Source of the DNA: an uncultured virus (IMG/VR IMGVR_UViG_3300033406_000383)
Taxonomy: Duplodnaviria; Heunggongvirae; Uroviricota; Caudoviricetes
DNA length: 64,000 bases
IMG/VR virus record: IMGVR_UViG_3300033406_000383
Direction: 5' to 3' (one strand)
This document shows positions 5,627 to 49,319 of the stretch, one piece after another. Position 1 is the first letter of the stretch. Each line of letters opens with the position of its first letter. Below the pieces are notes generated by a model, which saw only the letters and a list, made by a program, of their open reading frames with translations, was not told where the DNA came from and ran no database searches. The position numbers were made by a program, and so were the translations under genes.

Positions 5627-6160
5627 TTACCATTCAACTATGGTTCTAACATAGGTCGCCCCGTATTTCTGTGATACTGGAGAGTAATGCAGTATGACCT
5701 CGTTTTTCCCTTGCTGATACCCAAGGTCAACATAGGCTTCTTTGTCCAGCACTGTGACTCCTGCTTTCACTTTGTGATTTTTCTCCGTATGCACAGAGTA
5801 AAATGAGTTGGTCACAGGACTCGTGGTTTCTTTGATTACTAAGTCACCTTTATCTGCCTTGGTGAGTTCCTGAGCACGAGCCTCCGCTTGCCCCTGCGTG
5901 GCAGTAACATAGACAATCTGTGGAGCCCCTTGTTTAACTTCTGTAATCTTCTCGGTGATTGTCTTGATTTCCGCAGGAGTAGCATCAGGTTTCAATGTCG
6001 CCATAGCCTTAGCCACTTCGTTATAATCCACGGAAGCCACTGTTGCCATAGGGACGTTCTTGGAGCTTCGGTATTCATAGTAACCCACGCACAAAACTGC
6101 GATTACCAAGAGTAACCCTAGTAGAAACTTCCATTCTCTCTTGAAAAACTCTAGTATCAT
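5627..6160 (-). CDS. membrane-anchored lysis-cassette protein, candidate spanin-like
   Basis: N-terminal TM helix (FLLGLLLVIAVLCVGYY), helical middle, beta-strand-like C-terminus ending in Trp; last gene of the lysis cassette. Confidence 0.55.
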   Translation of the reverse strand: MILEFFKREWKFLLGLLLVIAVLCVGYYEYRSSKNVPMATVASVDYNEVAKAMATLKPDATPAEIKTITEKITEVKQGAPQIVYVTATQGQAEARAQELTKADKGDLVIKETTSPVTNSFYSVHTEKNHKVKAGVTVLDKEAYVDLGYQQGKNEVILHYSPVSQKYGATYVRTIVEW

Positions 6161-6243: not shown

Positions 6244-6393
6244 CTATTGGACTCCTAGGGTGGTCATACGCGATTCCACGGCTTTCACAAGGTTCTCGTG
6301 GGCTTCCACGATCTCAGGGATAAGCCTTGGATACTTCTTTAGCATCTTGTCACGGTTATCATTGATTATTGCGAGAAGGTCTATGAGTTTCAT
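6244..6393 (-). CDS. small hypothetical protein (49 aa, MKLIDLLAIINDNRDK...)
   Basis: ATGA-coupled to the endolysin stop; not in the ORF track. Confidence 0.55.
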   Translation of the reverse strand: MKLIDLLAIINDNRDKMLKKYPRLIPEIVEAHENLVKAVESRMTTLGVQ

Positions 6394-33954: not shown

Positions 33955-35622
33955 TCACCTCCTTAGTAATCTTTGAAATATGTTAGAATTACTCTGTTGC
34001 TTCTTAGGTGATGGCAGGGATGCAAAAGAAAAAGATTGCAGTGAGGTTCCCATGAATCCAGTAACTGCAATCCATAATGCATCGAGGGTATTATCTGATT
34101 TCCCTTTGGGAAATCTACGCATTTCATCGAGTAACCTACGTTGATCCTTGCGAACTTTGATCCATCCGCTTCTCATTGGTATAATTAATGATCTAATCTT
34201 GGTCTGCTTTGAACCAAACTGTTTTACCTTGATGCCCTCGAATGGTAAGTATAATCCAGCGTTAAGGCATCGGCGTTCCATATTATCCTTGACAGCCAAT
34301 AGCTGGAAAACAACATCTTCTATGGCTATCCTACGAATCTTGCCATCCCTGTGATACTGGATTCCATAGATTATCATTTGTTCACTCAATGTATCTATTG
34401 TTGCTTTCTTGGCAAATACATCGAGTACATAGAAGTAGTTGTCCACGCCTTTCCCAACGACTACAATAGCTCCATCGTCACTCTTACGGTTCGCGGTGGC
34501 AGCAGCGTCTACTCCGATGTAGATATCAGTGAGTTCTGGGAGTTCATCAATTTCATAGGTGTTCCTGTCAATCCAATCTTCTTTGAACTCCCTTGTGGCA
34601 TCGGTTACTGGGTCATTCTGCATCTCTGTTCCCCATGCTTCTTCACCGATCTTTTGGCGTTCTTTCATGAGGTGCAAATATGTGTCTGCGTATCTATCCC
34701 AAAGTACCTCAGTGCCTTCCAGCATTTCTTCTTTGTTATCAAAGTAGAAATCATCGGCATCCTTGATGCGTCTGTGATTACTAAGGTTATTCCTAATGTC
34801 AGTCCATTGATCCCATAGGTGCGATGTTGAATATTCTTTGATCGCTTGGTATTTCTTCGTGTAGTAATCAGAGAATTGTTCATCGTTCATCATACGAGCC
34901 AATAGACAAGCATCGTTTAATAAGGTTCCTATGACAAACACATGGCAGAACTTAGAGCCACACTTGTAGAGAACCTTGGTGTACCAATCGTAGAGTTTTT
35001 TGCGTTGGTCATCGTTATCACTATTTTCATTGTTTAAAATGTCATCACATACGATAACTGTAGGACGAACTCCGAACATCTTAACGCCACGCATGGATGC
35101 CCCTGCACCCTTGGAGGATACACAGATTCCATTGGAACATTGTAGCTTCTCGGAAGTCCATATTGTTGCTCCAATGAGGCTTCCAAAGTCAGCAATGAAT
35201 TTCTCATTATCTTCAAGGAACTGTCGTATGTCGACGATAAACTGGCGACCCAGCGATGATTCATTGGTAACAATGAGGATATTCCGTGTATGCTTGTATG
35301 CAATGCACCACAATGGAAATGCGAAGGAAGTCCAGAAGCTTTTTCCATGACCACGAGGACTTAATATGCATGACTCTGTACTCTCTGTTTTTCTATTGAG
35401 TACAATGTCTTCAAGGCGACTAGATATTTCATAATGGAATTCACATAGTTCATCCAATGGCTCCCCAGAACCATCGTTCAAGTAGGTTTTCACAAATTCC
35501 ACCAATGAATATCTGCAACGTTCAACATCGGACTGTTTTTGTTCTTCTGTGAGTGTCCCTTGGGTATCTGAAACACCCTGGAACAATTCATCGAGTATAC
35601 CCAAGTTATCACCGACTTTCAT
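33955..35622 (-). CDS. terL: terminase large subunit
   Basis: SPRGHGKS Walker A, VIVCDDI Walker B, IGT coupling motif, YIGVDAA...DDGAIVVVG...DNTLDAL nuclease. Confidence 0.93.
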   Translation of the reverse strand: MKVGDNLGILDELFQGVSDTQGTLTEEQKQSDVERCRYSLVEFVKTYLNDGSGEPLDELCEFHYEISSRLEDIVLNRKTESTESCILSPRGHGKSFWTSFAFPLWCIAYKHTRNILIVTNESSLGRQFIVDIRQFLEDNEKFIADFGSLIGATIWTSEKLQCSNGICVSSKGAGASMRGVKMFGVRPTVIVCDDILNNENSDNDDQRKKLYDWYTKVLYKCGSKFCHVFVIGTLLNDACLLARMMNDEQFSDYYTKKYQAIKEYSTSHLWDQWTDIRNNLSNHRRIKDADDFYFDNKEEMLEGTEVLWDRYADTYLHLMKERQKIGEEAWGTEMQNDPVTDATREFKEDWIDRNTYEIDELPELTDIYIGVDAAATANRKSDDGAIVVVGKGVDNYFYVLDVFAKKATIDTLSEQMIIYGIQYHRDGKIRRIAIEDVVFQLLAVKDNMERRCLNAGLYLPFEGIKVKQFGSKQTKIRSLIIPMRSGWIKVRKDQRRLLDEMRRFPKGKSDNTLDALWIAVTGFMGTSLQSFSFASLPSPKKQQSNSNIFQRLLRR

Positions 35623-41977: not shown

Positions 41978-42700
41978 CTAGATATTCCTACGAACCATCT
42001 CCTTTACTAAGGATTCCAAGGTAGCCTTGGTTTCAAGGTTTGGAACTTTGGATTTGTAGGTTTCTTCGAGTCCAAGGAAATACTTAGTGTACATTGTATT
42101 AACCATGTCTTTGAACTCTGGCAGCGTAAATTCTCCATATTTAATACTAAAGAGTGCTCTGTGATCATAGTTATCATAGGTCATAGCCTTAGCAAAATCC
42201 CAGTTAAATTCATGGAACCTCACAATAAAATCTAAGATTCTAAAGGCATGCAGAGCTTGCTTTGTATCATATCCATGTTTATCCATGAGCTCCTGTGTAC
42301 CCGATGTTGGACTTTGGATTCTCTTCATCTTCTCATGGAACATACCCTTGCAAGCAGAGTATAAATATGGAAGGTTCATAGTTACGATGTCTTGCTTCAT
42401 TGCTAACATTGGAAGAATCCAGTGGTCATATCCTGGAAATACCCTTTCCTTAGAATACAAGACTTCCAAGAAGTTCACATTGGCTTTCCAGAATAACTCA
42501 GTGAGCTTACGGATATCATGGACATCATAGTCTTCCTCTGTACCTACTTTGGACGTGCTGAACTTAGTACCACTATAGAGATCATCGAATGTCGGGAGCA
42601 CAAAGTATTTCCAGTCTTTATCACTGGTTTCATCATTGAGATTGTAATTGTGAGATCCTACGAGAGCCTTGAATACAACTTTACGATCATTGAACATCAT
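41978..42700 (-). CDS. predicted nucleotidyltransferase (pol-beta superfamily, Nuc-transf/RlaP-like)
   Basis: VGSHNYNLNDETSDKDWK (GS..D.D), KANVNFLEVLYS, YDTKQALHAFR. Confidence 0.85.
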   Translation of the reverse strand: MMFNDRKVVFKALVGSHNYNLNDETSDKDWKYFVLPTFDDLYSGTKFSTSKVGTEEDYDVHDIRKLTELFWKANVNFLEVLYSKERVFPGYDHWILPMLAMKQDIVTMNLPYLYSACKGMFHEKMKRIQSPTSGTQELMDKHGYDTKQALHAFRILDFIVRFHEFNWDFAKAMTYDNYDHRALFSIKYGEFTLPEFKDMVNTMYTKYFLGLEETYKSKVPNLETKATLESLVKEMVRRNI

Positions 42701-44148: not shown

Positions 44149-44177
44149 TTGACTCTTAGGAAACTATATAGTATAAT
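44149..44177 (+). promoter_or_regulatory. rightward early sigmaA promoter with AGGAAACTA in the spacer
   Basis: TTGACT-cttaggaaactatatag(17)-TATAAT, AT-rich upstream. Confidence 0.85.
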
Positions 44178-44377: not shown

Positions 44378-44420
44378 GGAAACACTGGAGTACGGAGGGC
44401 ACACAAGCCTTCCCTACTCA
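44334..44420 (-). ncRNA. putative cis-antisense (antitoxin-like) RNA
   Basis: Consensus TTGACA-18-TATAAT promoter on the minus strand (44426-44455); two hairpins; final AGAGC...GCTCT stem followed by a T-rich tail. Confidence 0.6.
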
Positions 44421-44456
44421 CCTAAATTATAGCCTATGAATTCCTATGATGTCAAT

Positions 44457-44609
44457 ATGAAAAACATAATTTACCCTTTGATCATTATGTCATTCGTAGT
44501 AATTCAAGTACATTCCCAGTATAACAACATATTCACAGAGGTGCTGCTATGGGTAACCCTGGTTCCTACGGTCTACATTGTAGTCAAAGAAATTCTAAGG
44601 AGGCGGTAA
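44457..44609 (+). CDS. 50-aa two-TM membrane peptide
   Basis: MKNIIYPLIIMSFVVIQV...VLLWVTLVPTVYIVVKEILRRR; no clear RBS. Confidence 0.5.
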   Translation: MKNIIYPLIIMSFVVIQVHSQYNNIFTEVLLWVTLVPTVYIVVKEILRRR

Positions 44610-44611
44610 TA

Positions 44612-47600
44612 ATGAAGCTCAAAGATTTACTATGGCATTTAAAAGGAATGCACCCAGACAGCGAAGTATACTTTGAAGATCATAGCACTGGTAAGGAAGT
44701 TCGCTATGAATTCTCCGATACCATGGTTGATGAACTAGGAGACATATGTATACATAATTACAATGATTATAACAAAGTAGACTAAGCTAACACAGTATCC
44801 AAAGGAAAGGCGGTGGCATCCATGAGGTAAGCGCAGTTCGTTTCACTCATAAACAATGAAAGCGAGGTGAGACCATAATGGAACCCAGGAGGCGAGGGTA
44901 ATTCATAGCCCTCCATAGAGGCCATTGAATGTCAGTGGCTTGTATGGTAGTCTATGAAATTCAAAGGAGTGTTAATGGTGAATGCAAAGGTTTATATCTT
45001 AGAAACAATCAATAAAACCAATGGCTTCAGAGAAACTATACAATACACTGGAAGCCTAAGAAATAAGCCGAAGGGCTACAAAGTAATAAAATGCATTGGT
45101 GACAAAGATAACGATGCAAATCCACCATATGGCAATGGTTTACAGTATTAACCTGCCCGATGAGTCCTGAGTAGTTCTTAGGCGAAACTCTTAGAATGTA
45201 GGGAAATTCTAGGAGTCGCAGGAAACTATGATACACTGGTAACAATGCTTGCCTAGTATCATCCTCGAATCATTGGTTATCACATGACCGCGAGACTGCT
45301 CAAGTCGAGCTTTCGCATATGTGACACTGTATAGCATAGAATTAGACCTTGTTAATGTCCTGGACGGGTCAACGTCTTTTCTTATGTGTATATGGGATAC
45401 TAAAGGAAACTAAGGAGGTCACAATGATAACAAAGCAAACCTTTGATAAACTATATGATAACCTGTCTATTATACTAGGAAACTTATGTGCCAATGATTA
45501 CAAACAGGCTAACAGCGGTAAACGTCGGACCACGAAGACAGGTAGAAAGGTCCATATATCATACAGTCTATCCGACGAATCCCTAGAGGCTAAAGAAACA
45601 TTGGACCTACTCTGTAAACATGGCGAGTCAATGGACCTGGCAATCGAAGAAATTATCAAAGGTTATATCATGAGGATTCGCCTACTATTCCCTAGTTACC
45701 TTGAGAGGCCCGCATCATGATCAAATACGCAGTATTCAAAGGTAAAGCCAAGGATTTCAAAGGATTCAGTGAATTCAAAGTAATAACGAAAGGCAAGGTG
45801 TAAACGATGAATAAAGAGCCAAAGTTTAATATTGGAGATACAGTGGAAGCAACATGGACTGGAGGTCATACATCAGTACACATTATTACTGTAATTGGAG
45901 AAAATCATCATGGGTACTGGTATTCATGGAAATATAGTAAGTACGGCAACGGTTTACATGAAAAGTATCTTCGCAAAATCAAAGGAGCAGTGCTTAACAA
46001 TGATTAAAATTAAGATCAACACAGGTAACGAGGCATTCGATGGAGATCAAAGAGACTATGAAGTCGCAAGAATACTAAGAGAATTAGCGGATAACTTTGA
46101 AAATTGCACTGGTAGATTCAAGGGACTTTATGATGCCAATGGTAATCAGTGCGGAACCGTGGAATACACAGGAAAGGACAGGTGTTAAGCAATGGAAGCT
46201 ATGACTAGAACCTTCGACATCCATTATAACGACGGTGCATACTACGGCACAGTGACATTCAATGATTTATCACAGAAAGACATTGAAACTGAGATACAAA
46301 GGGAAATCAGTAAAAACAATGCTCACATGGACAAATATGCAGATCATTCAATGTATCATATTTCAAAGAAGAACTTCAAGGAGGTAACACCATGAACACT
46401 CAGCGTATCAAAGTAGCACTGGACAACCTCGAATACTTAGACAACCAATTATATACATTGATGACCAATAAGAAACTCCGCAGGGTTGACTATGCAGAAC
46501 TAAAGAAAAACATTGACCATACCAAGGGACACCTGCAGGAATGCATCAAAGAAAGCGAGGAATCACAATGTTAACAATATATTCCAATGGCTCAGGTTTT
46601 GACGATGAAAAGCCGTGGCTTGCTGTGCCTCCCTGCTCAATCGAAGTATTGTTACAGGTACTCGCAGAACATGCACTAGATAAAACATTTGAAAAATACG
46701 GGAACTTCATAGAACGCAATGTAGTGTTAAGAGATGGAACAAAGTTGCCAGAGGGAACAGTGATATTCTTTGGTAATTTCCGCAGTTACTCCCATGTATT
46801 CCGCATTGTTACCGATGACACAGAGATTATCCAACAGTTAACCAATGCTATCAATGAAAATAAACTAAGAGAAGACTATATTTCACAGTGAACACTGTTT
46901 TATTATGCCATCCCACGCTACCAAAGGAAACCAAAGAAAGGAGGTGATAACATGGACAACCAAATAACCTCAGTATTTGACTCAGAGAAAACTCAGTCAA
47001 CCCTAAGCACTGTCTTCGTATCCAATGGCTGCATTAATAACCATGATCTAAACTCAGCAATCATCACAGAAATTAAGACTAACAAAGAGCTCCAATATCA
47101 AGCAATGAATAAACGTATGAGTCCCTCGGATATCGTATGGCGAGCATTGGTGGTCATTGCTAACCAGTGCCTTACCGAAGACTATTCGAGGAAATATACT
47201 GCCTCCCTACCCCATCTTGAGCACTGGTTAGCAATGTATAATGGGAACATTAAGGAGTCCGTGGAATACGTGGAAAGACTCTGAAGTCTGGAGTATGCCA
47301 ACGAATAAGCCTATGAAATTCGTTGGTATCATCGAGAAATTAGAGAAAGGCAGTGATAACAATGACAAAATATAACGTATACAGTGGTAACTCAGAATAT
47401 CCAATAATGACATGCGACAATTTCAAGAAAGTACAAAAGATAATGCAAAGTGTTACCCATCCACACATGATAATCACGTATAACAGAGTAGTATCGGAAA
47501 TGGAAATCAAAGGGTGGTCAAGGTCTCGTATGGTTGAACTATGGAAGTCAGCGGAATCATGCCTATACAGTGGTTATGTCCCTAGAGGCTATAATACAAA

Positions 47601-48219: not shown

Positions 48220-48248
48220 TTGACAATTAGGAAACTATATAGTATACT
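48220..48248 (+). promoter_or_regulatory. sigmaA promoter with AGGAAACTA in the spacer, facing the antirepressor 3' end
   Basis: TTGACA-attaggaaactatatag(17)-TATACT. Confidence 0.75.
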
Positions 48249-48295
48249 TATATACATAGAGAAAGACCTACGAATTAACGTAGGTCATCCAATGA

Positions 48296-49108
48296 CTAAG
48301 CCTTGAGTCTATCTAAGACCCTCTGTACATCTTCTATGGTTTCAATCTTTGTTATCCTTGGAGGAACTATGTTCCTATACGTGGAATTCATCACTTGATC
48401 TATGAATCCAATGCCACTCGGAGTAACCAAAGTTTGAAACTGACCATAGCCTCTACTGACTCCCTCGGTTACAGTGAAATACCCTGCAGTTATGAATTTC
48501 TGATAAGGCTCATTGGTACTCATGAGGATTCCACGGCTTCTAAGGAATGCGAAGAGCCTATCCCTGCCAGTACCTAGAGCCTTGGCTGCTTGTGAAATCG
48601 TTTGGTTGCCGTGGGAATTCATGAATTTATCAAAGGCATTAACTTTGGGAGCATTGGCTTCTATGGTGTCCTGGGAATCCGCGAGCATACGCAGAGCTTC
48701 TTGAAATGTCTGTGGTAATGTAGTATACTGAGAATTAGCTTGTGGGTTGATATGTGAAACGAAGGCGGTCGCTAAAACATCCTTGCATTTCAATTGATAT
48801 TCTACAAGCTTTTCCTGTGTATCGGAGTTTACTATATTAGCATTGATCTTAGCAAGCCATAGAGGAAGGTATGTAATTTCTATACAATAAGCATCTTGAT
48901 CACCGCCATTCGAAGGAGTGACAATTCTTTGTATCCCCTTTGATAACACAATATCTCCTTGAATCTTCGCTATCTGGTGCTTACCTTGACGATCACTAAG
49001 TCCTAATCCCTTACATATCCATCGAATACCTACATAAATACCTTCGTCATTCTTAACACATGTCAAGATATCTCCCATGAATTCAACGTTCTTAACTATG
49101 TTAGACAT
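48296..49108 (-). CDS. phage antirepressor (P22 AR N-terminal-like + KilAC/ANT domain)
   Basis: VEFMGD...YVGIRWICKGLGL...LPLWLAKIN...YQLKC; LPQTFQEALR..PKV..FD...GRDRLFAFLR...TLVTPSG. Confidence 0.88.
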   Translation of the reverse strand: MSNIVKNVEFMGDILTCVKNDEGIYVGIRWICKGLGLSDRQGKHQIAKIQGDIVLSKGIQRIVTPSNGGDQDAYCIEITYLPLWLAKINANIVNSDTQEKLVEYQLKCKDVLATAFVSHINPQANSQYTTLPQTFQEALRMLADSQDTIEANAPKVNAFDKFMNSHGNQTISQAAKALGTGRDRLFAFLRSRGILMSTNEPYQKFITAGYFTVTEGVSRGYGQFQTLVTPSGIGFIDQVMNSTYRNIVPPRITKIETIEDVQRVLDRLKA

Positions 49109-49319
49109 TATGAACCTCCTCCCCATATACAAAGAGTTCGTTGATACAATCAGCATTCTTCGCTACTACAAAGTAGCACTCAGTAAACGCAATGGAAATC
49201 CCTTCGAATACAAAGGTATCCGCTGCTTTCATGGTCTTCAGCAAATGTAATGCTTTCTTTGTGCTCATTGTTCTTGTCCCGATTTCTCCCATGTCATTGT
49301 TAAAGGTGATCTTAGTCAT
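49101..49319 (-). CDS. small hypothetical protein upstream of the antirepressor
   Basis: AAGGATGTG RBS; MTKITFNND...; overlaps the antirepressor start. Confidence 0.55.
   Translation of the reverse strand: MTKITFNNDMGEIGTRTMSTKKALHLLKTMKAADTFVFEGISIAFTECYFVVAKNADCINELFVYGEEVHNV

Follow-up and report, generated by a model that had tools for sequence, protein, structure and literature searches.

A candidate type I hammerhead ribozyme with a variant core in the plus-strand gene block of an uncultured tailed phage

Hammerhead ribozymes are known to occur between prophage genes, as described by Perreault et al. 2011 (PMC3088659). The type I hammerheads with a pseudoknot that are found in phages and prophages have an open stem I, a core of the form CNGANGA, a GAA segment, and an A15.1–U16.1 pair followed by the nucleotide H17. 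In these ribozymes a loop pairs with a tail beside the partner stem, and it is predicted that some 40% of hammerheads employ a pseudoknot between stem I and stem II. They lie between co-oriented small phage genes, right after a stop codon. The haloviruses HF1 and HF2 carry HHphage, a core-variant hammerhead in an early polycistronic transcript of a prokaryotic virus, and a mapped 5′ end of that early transcript falls no more than three nucleotides away from the site at which HHphage is cut (PMC3088659). A natural C in place of U at core position 4 (U4C) is on record for a viroid hammerhead (Ambros and Flores 1998, via PMC3088659). Here we describe an element that resembles these ribozymes and is located in a stretch of 64,000 nucleotides (the window, whose positions serve as coordinates) of IMGVR_UViG_3300033406_000383, an uncultured virus of the Caudoviricetes. 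We consider it fairly probable that the element is a type I hammerhead of a small lineage undetected by Rfam, which would cut a plus-strand operon RNA after C45217.

A first-pass annotation of the window had placed a type I hammerhead directly after a small open reading frame (ORF), and its coordinates were all correct when checked against the sequence. The junction that it had drawn was reproduced by the unconstrained minimum-energy fold of 45152–45229, which is a three-way junction with stem I open. The energy of this fold was −26.6 kcal/mol (z −3.63), and none of 200 shuffles equalled it. Stem II appeared in the fold with the one bulged U and the loop UAGUU that had been assigned to it, and stem III, estimated earlier at about 10 bp, was found to consist of 11 pairs. 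The replacement of U4 by C was seen at 45158. When compared with the core positions listed in PMC3088659, the window copy matched 12 of 13, the exception being U4. Of the seven positions of the stricter core CUGANGA it fitted six, and its C at position 4 departs from that motif. GAAA is present at 45184–45187 and GUC at 45215–45217. The pairs that flank the core are standard in the window copy, namely G10.1–C11.1 (G45164/C45183), C2.1–G1.1 (C45156/G45218), and A15.1–U16.1 (A45187/U45216). Three G–U pairs (45169/45179, 45191/45212, and one in a hairpin on the 3′ side of the element) are specific to the plus strand.

Both strands of the 64 kb were scanned with our own type I hammerhead descriptor, in which any base was allowed at position 4. 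The candidate was the sole match. A looser version of the descriptor gave one further weak site, at 35464–35553 on the minus strand. When 300 dinucleotide-preserving shuffles of the window were scanned, 68 contained a match with minimal stems (4/3/3 bp) and three contained a match with stems of at least 5/5/5. The candidate has 23 helix pairs; the best total among the shuffles was 20, so that 0 of 300 reached the observed number. Such a motif is therefore out of the ordinary in a single window; in a scan of very many windows, however, the shuffle result would not suffice on its own.

Relatives were reached through a neighbouring nucleotidyltransferase-like gene (41978–42697, minus strand), which led to two related viral contigs, L001 and L002. 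Between the window and L001, blastn aligned 114 nt at 77% identity, with exact bounds at 45152 and 45264, and the flanks on both sides were unalignable. The copy in L001 lies at 6023–6137 on the minus strand. Its core reads CUGACGA, with all seven canonical positions including U4, and an additional U stands between A9 and G10.1. De la Pena and Flores (2001) dealt with an additional nucleotide in the core of a viroid hammerhead; that nucleotide, too, reportedly follows A9. The minimum-energy fold of the L001 copy is the same hammerhead junction (z −4.62).

The differences between the two copies sit where a hammerhead tolerates change. In stem II, 8 of 15 columns differ, and both copies keep seven pairs and the bulged U; two of the pairs are changed on both sides and two on one side. 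The first eight pairs of stem III are retained in L001, one pair being changed on one side, and its tip is shorter, with 9 of the 14 columns of the distal tip differing mostly through length change. No difference was found in stem I (0/10), loop II (0/5), GAA (0/3), C17, or the AACUA tail (0/5), and GUC and the A15.1–U16.1 pair are also invariant. With the named structure, 98.6% of the cells pair, compared with 31–51% when the partners are slid by 1–3 columns. Pairs changed on both sides number three, of which stem II holds two and the 3′ hairpin the third. It would be surprising for a fortuitous look-alike to possess a relative closer to the consensus than it is itself. The homologue with its canonical core supports the type I reading, and it appears to be the decisive evidence for a hammerhead lineage.

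Among the Rfam models, RAGATH-1 (RF03152) scored best for this lineage. Its alignment to the L001 copy scored 22.6 bits over model positions 23–77 and had the correct register, in which stem I, the core, GAAA, stem III, and GUC all fall into place and the additional U is treated as inserted after A9. The lineage differs from RF03152 in that the first 22 model positions are unmatched, in that stem II has seven pairs compared with one in the model, and in that the loop partner lies 3′ of stem I, whereas RF03152 has a 5′ pseudoknot partner. The window copy gave no match to RF03152, nor was RF03152 found elsewhere in the related records, and we do not assign the element to that family. Compared with the type I hammerheads of phages and prophages (PMC3088659), the window copy departs in its C4 and the L001 copy in its extra U after A9, and the present element has an 11-pair stem III and a conserved hairpin 5 nt after stem I. 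HHphage differs by insertions at 2a and 2b, by an archaeal halophile host, and by lying 13 nt before a start codon, while the next start here is ~200 nt downstream. The viroid hammerhead has the same natural core substitution; it belongs to an RNA replicon, unlike the present element, which would be part of a phage messenger RNA (mRNA).

Other homologues were sought in several ways. No match to 44400–46000 was returned by blastn from 50,697 phage records, and exact and degenerate DNA patterns run across viral contigs found the L001 contig alone. The conserved downstream protein, used as a query, also led to the L001 contig only, and protein-anchored searches with both flanking ORFs gave no relatives. 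No copy of the ribozyme was present in L002. A metagenome scan yielded 14 stretches, one of which (L016) is the window; the other 13 had no model match at E < 0.01 (best L006, 9.5 bits). One stretch from a scan of genome contigs (L019) had no model match and is apparently an unrelated protein-coding region. When the related records were searched with RF00163, nothing was found at the ribozyme site; a weak row at another place in the phage of L001 (15 bits) was rejected as a hammerhead by the descriptor. Apart from what is described below, the local Rfam rows at E ≤ 10 were just unrelated small nucleolar RNA or microRNA families.

It may be noted that L001 contains a 20-nt direct repeat, at 6342–6361 and 6118–6137 (both on the minus strand, 224 nt apart), which comprises a stop codon, the stem I strand, and core. 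It resembles a trace left at the ribozyme when a module was inserted or when recombination took place. A second hammerhead at 6342–6361 was considered and rejected: there was no descriptor match, the helices adjacent to the core were unpaired, and partner strands were absent.

Loop II had been described as exactly complementary to AACUA at 45224–45228, and this was borne out; the statement that the tail is itself a box also held, as AACUA lies inside a copy of the AGGAAACTA box (45220–45228). Five Watson–Crick pairs are possible between loop and tail in the window and in L001, and all of them are invariant. The estimated chance of a perfect 5-base partner for the loop within ~16 tail positions is ~0.016. 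On the mechanism proposed below, loop II would probably pair with this tail through UAGUU.

The AGGAAACTA box occurs 16 times in the window, compared with 0.65 expected, over a span of 4376–62329. In five sigma-70-like promoters a copy has a fixed position in the spacer, with 3 nt between it and TTGACA and 5 nt between it and TATNAT. Eight others are found in gene leaders, where the box adjoins the 5′ side of an AAGGAGG ribosome-binding site and a GAAAC-like half-repeat lies one helical turn upstream, the sequence in front of the box being (C/T)TATG, 11 nt, AAC(C/T)AA. With its two classes, promoter and leader, the box looks like the operator of a DNA-binding phage regulator. The L001 phage is not enriched in the box (7 copies in 80 kb vs 5 for the reversed control) and nonetheless has an identical ribozyme tail; therefore, conservation of the tail serves the element itself. 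The box at 45220 was examined as a promoter and rejected, there being no −35/−10 hexamers at the spacing of the five box promoters. The idea that loop II pairs in trans with gene leaders that carry the box was also dismissed: it involved 5 bases only, with no extension by eye.

From the established mechanism of hammerheads, the following course of events may be proposed. After the polymerase has passed ~45228, stems I, II, and III would fold co-transcriptionally around the core, and stem I would be kept alongside stem II by the pairing of loop II with AACUA. Then the 2′-OH of C45217 would attack its own 3′ phosphate. The upstream cistrons would then end in a compact ribozyme fold with a 2′,3′-cyclic phosphate, while the downstream RNA would begin with a 5′-OH at G45218, followed by the 3′ hairpin. 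This cleavage would divide the operon message into two distinct molecules, each with ends protected in its own way. Such a cut would match the proposal of Perreault et al. for gene-flanking prophage hammerheads and their remark on the halovirus variant with its mapped 5′ end (PMC3088659). What the analysis shows is the fold, the core match, the homology to a copy with a canonical core, and the compensatory changes in helices; the cleavage itself, its rate with C4, the pseudoknot, and an effect on mRNA stability are inferred.

Several results weigh against a cleaving hammerhead at this site. A search with the Rfam hammerhead models had been put forward as a check in the first-pass annotation, and none of these models recognizes the window copy. 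At gathering thresholds, the whole window gave no Rfam match of any kind. At E ≤ 10, no hammerhead row was obtained for 301 nt around the site, and for 88 nt the sole hammerhead row was of type III, out of register and with 10.9 bits. Rfam also gave no hammerhead match over 351 nt of L001, where the RAGATH-1 score of 22.6 bits compares with a gathering threshold of 56.3. With respect to covariation, the shuffle control is weak because there are just two independent sequences, the window and L001 (all 3046 bases of L016 match the window), and 56 of 500 shuffles reached the observed values. The pairs of stem I and of the pseudoknot are invariant and give no covariation evidence either way. In the minimum-energy fold of 361 nt (ensemble frequency 0.0001), stem II is replaced by a long-range 9-pair helix of its 3′ strand with 45054–45062 inside the upstream ORF. 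As for the core, U4C ‘considerably decreases activity in vitro’, and by the criteria of PMC3088659 a match without U4 would be disqualified at first pass.

The lowered activity of U4C in vitro (PMC3088659) raises the main alternative, that the window copy is a disabled or very slow hammerhead, which we regard as possible but unlikely. The L001 copy would then be active, and the U4C copy would be kept as a structured spacer that serves, along with the 3′ hairpin and the AGGAAACTA box, as a 3′/5′ stability element or a protein-binding platform. It is consistent with such a role that the window copy alone is without a correctly registered Rfam match, L001 having a weak one in the correct register, and that the best-conserved part is the 3′ side together with the hairpin (45205–45264, 60 nt, 92% identity between the window and L001), for which a non-catalytic reason is possible. 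Apart from position 4, however, the window copy has no decay: the three helices, GUC, every remaining base of the core, and the complementarity of loop and tail are intact. Moreover, a U4C variant of a viroid was active enough in vivo for infectivity, and core variants can be offset by peripheral tertiary contacts (PMC3088659). We think it improbable that the likeness to a hammerhead is fortuitous and that the locus is instead a conserved regulatory module of structured RNA or DNA, in which a short helix closes two hairpins and AGGAAACTA is the binding box of a phage factor. The 9-mer of the tail is phage-wide (16 vs 0.65), and its five promoter spacers and eight leaders point to a protein-binding role; in addition, no Rfam model scores above threshold, and chance can produce minimal motifs of hammerhead type, as in 68 of 300 shuffles. 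Yet the L001 homologue fits the consensus better, with U4, the inter-copy differences avoid the catalytic segments GAA and GUC while stem II is rebuilt, and the L001 phage, without box enrichment, still has the identical tail.

A cleaving hammerhead might also be switchable, in that a factor bound to the box in the tail, or translation of the upstream ORF that frees stem II, would gate cleavage. We rate the chance of this as slim. The idea is suggested because the tail is the phage's 9-nt box and because a segment of the upstream ORF can pair with the stem II hairpin. For this upstream complementarity, 20 of 1000 shuffles were as good in the window and 23 of 1000 in L001; with a narrower target, the numbers were 33 of 1000 and 559 of 1000, respectively. 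The competing helix was framed after the fold had been seen and is to be taken as a lead only. If such switching were real, the element would be a natural protein- or translation-controlled hammerhead that times the splitting of the operon message. On balance, the element is very probably a member of a genuine hammerhead lineage that Rfam misses. The features of the element and its surroundings are collected in Table 1.

Table 1. Coordinates of the candidate ribozyme, its parts, and features in its surroundings (window positions).
Feature	Position	Strand	Description
Stem I, 5′ strand	45152–45156	+	CCUGC; same in L001
Core positions 3–9	45157–45163	+	CCGAUGA, C instead of consensus U4
Stem II	45164–45183	+	7 pairs, bulged U 45165, closing pair G10.1–C11.1 (45164/45183)
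Loop II	45172–45176	+	UAGUU
Core G12 A13 A14	45184–45186	+	GAA; unchanged in L001
Stem III	45187–45216	+	11 pairs (45187–45197 with 45206–45216), first pair A15.1–U16.1; 8-nt loop 45198–45205
C17 (H17)	45217	+	Predicted cut between 45217 and 45218, from hammerhead numbering
Stem I, 3′ strand	45218–45222	+	GCAGG; predicted 5′ end of downstream product
AACUA tail	45224–45228	+	Complementary to loop II; proposed 5-bp pseudoknot
3′ hairpin	45228–45264	+	7-bp outer stem, internal loop, 5-bp inner stem, loop CAAUGC
Possible stem II competitor	45053–45077	+	Inside upstream ORF; can pair with stem II hairpin
Upstream small ORF	44954–45151	+	TAA abuts ribozyme; no family match, no relative found
Downstream gene	45424–45720	+	98 aa, no family match; preceded by AGGAAACTA box and AAGGAGG ribosome-binding site
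Sigma-70-like promoter	44149–44177	+	TTGACT, 17 nt, TATAAT; consensus match; AGGAAACTA box within spacer
Promoter-spacer boxes	5520(−), 43349(−), 44158(+), 48229(+), 62329(−)		AGGAAACTA
Leader boxes, examples	4384, 41948, 43262, 52390, 60814, 61607 (all −), 45404(+)		AGGAAACTA

The window comes from a large uncultured tailed phage that encodes DNA polymerase, primase-helicase, ribonucleotide reductase, terminase, portal, and tail proteins. Its terminase has at most 34% identity to that of any of 50,697 phage records. In the nearest record, G001 (22.8 kb, labelled provirus), the positions of the AGGAAACTA box are shifted by 386 with respect to the window, and G001 apparently represents part of this phage or of a near-identical one (window 386–23200); it does not extend over the ribozyme region. 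The genes of the window are oriented on the minus strand almost throughout, the exception being a plus-strand block of small ORFs without assigned function at ~44.2–47.9 kb, where the AT and GC skews switch sign. The near-consensus sigma-70-like promoter at 44149 would drive this block. The label ‘early’ for the transcript is a provisional one, taken from this predicted promoter and the orientation of the genes. When expression data were sought for 44400–46400, no sequencing run came up. The ribozyme candidate lies ~1 kb inside the block, where it starts right after the TAA of the upstream ORF, and the next gene start (45424) is ~200 nt 3′ of it. A minus-strand promoter of perfect consensus (TTGACA, 18 nt, TATAAT) is also present inside the block, at 44426–44455; it points toward the 44149 promoter and may give rise to an antisense transcript. 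Outside the region of the ribozyme, a box promoter at 48220–48286 on the plus strand (TTGACA, 17 nt, TATACT) has an 8-pair hairpin (48265–48286) within 20 nt, and it converges on an antirepressor-like gene (48296–49156, minus strand), so that its product might be a very short or antisense RNA.

The 3′ hairpin starts 5 nt after stem I and ten bases from the predicted 5′-OH end. When the minimum-energy fold was extended through this hairpin, the hammerhead junction was retained. In its inner stem, one pair is changed on both sides between the window and L001, and one is changed on one side. The hairpin may protect the downstream RNA or serve in its recognition. A weak terminator-like hairpin at 45362–45385 on the plus strand (5 pairs and a T-run), which is not conserved in L001, separates the ribozyme from the gene that follows. 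If this terminator were functional, the 3′ product could, instead of forming the leader of that gene, be a small RNA ~170 nt long.

On the upstream side, the first ATG of ORF 44954–45151 (44954) is without a ribosome-binding site and is buried in a hairpin at ~44903–44958. The likelier start is the ATG at 44975 after AAAGGAG, from which a product of 58 aa is predicted. A second intergenic element is common to the window (44800–44958, plus strand) and L001 (5020–5185, minus strand), with unrelated flanking genes and in a different order. It comprises a 32-nt block of 94% identity (44805–44836), followed by the long hairpin at ~44903–44958, in which three pairs are changed on both sides. No Rfam match was obtained for this element.

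Hammerheads in phage operons, loop-tail pseudoknots, and U4C have all been published previously (PMC3088659). What is new here is a lineage undetected by Rfam, a natural pair of a U4C copy and a copy with a canonical core, the attached 3′ hairpin, and the overlap of the presumed pseudoknot tail with a phage-wide box. If the element cleaves, a phage U4C hammerhead with a canonical sister would be a natural experiment on how a pseudoknot compensates for a core defect, and it would again show that the Rfam models miss real lineages of phage hammerheads. With its hairpin and the overlap with a regulatory box, the element lends itself to the question of whether hammerheads of phages are under regulation. 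For the rest, the element would be one more case of phages punctuating their operons with self-cleaving RNAs.

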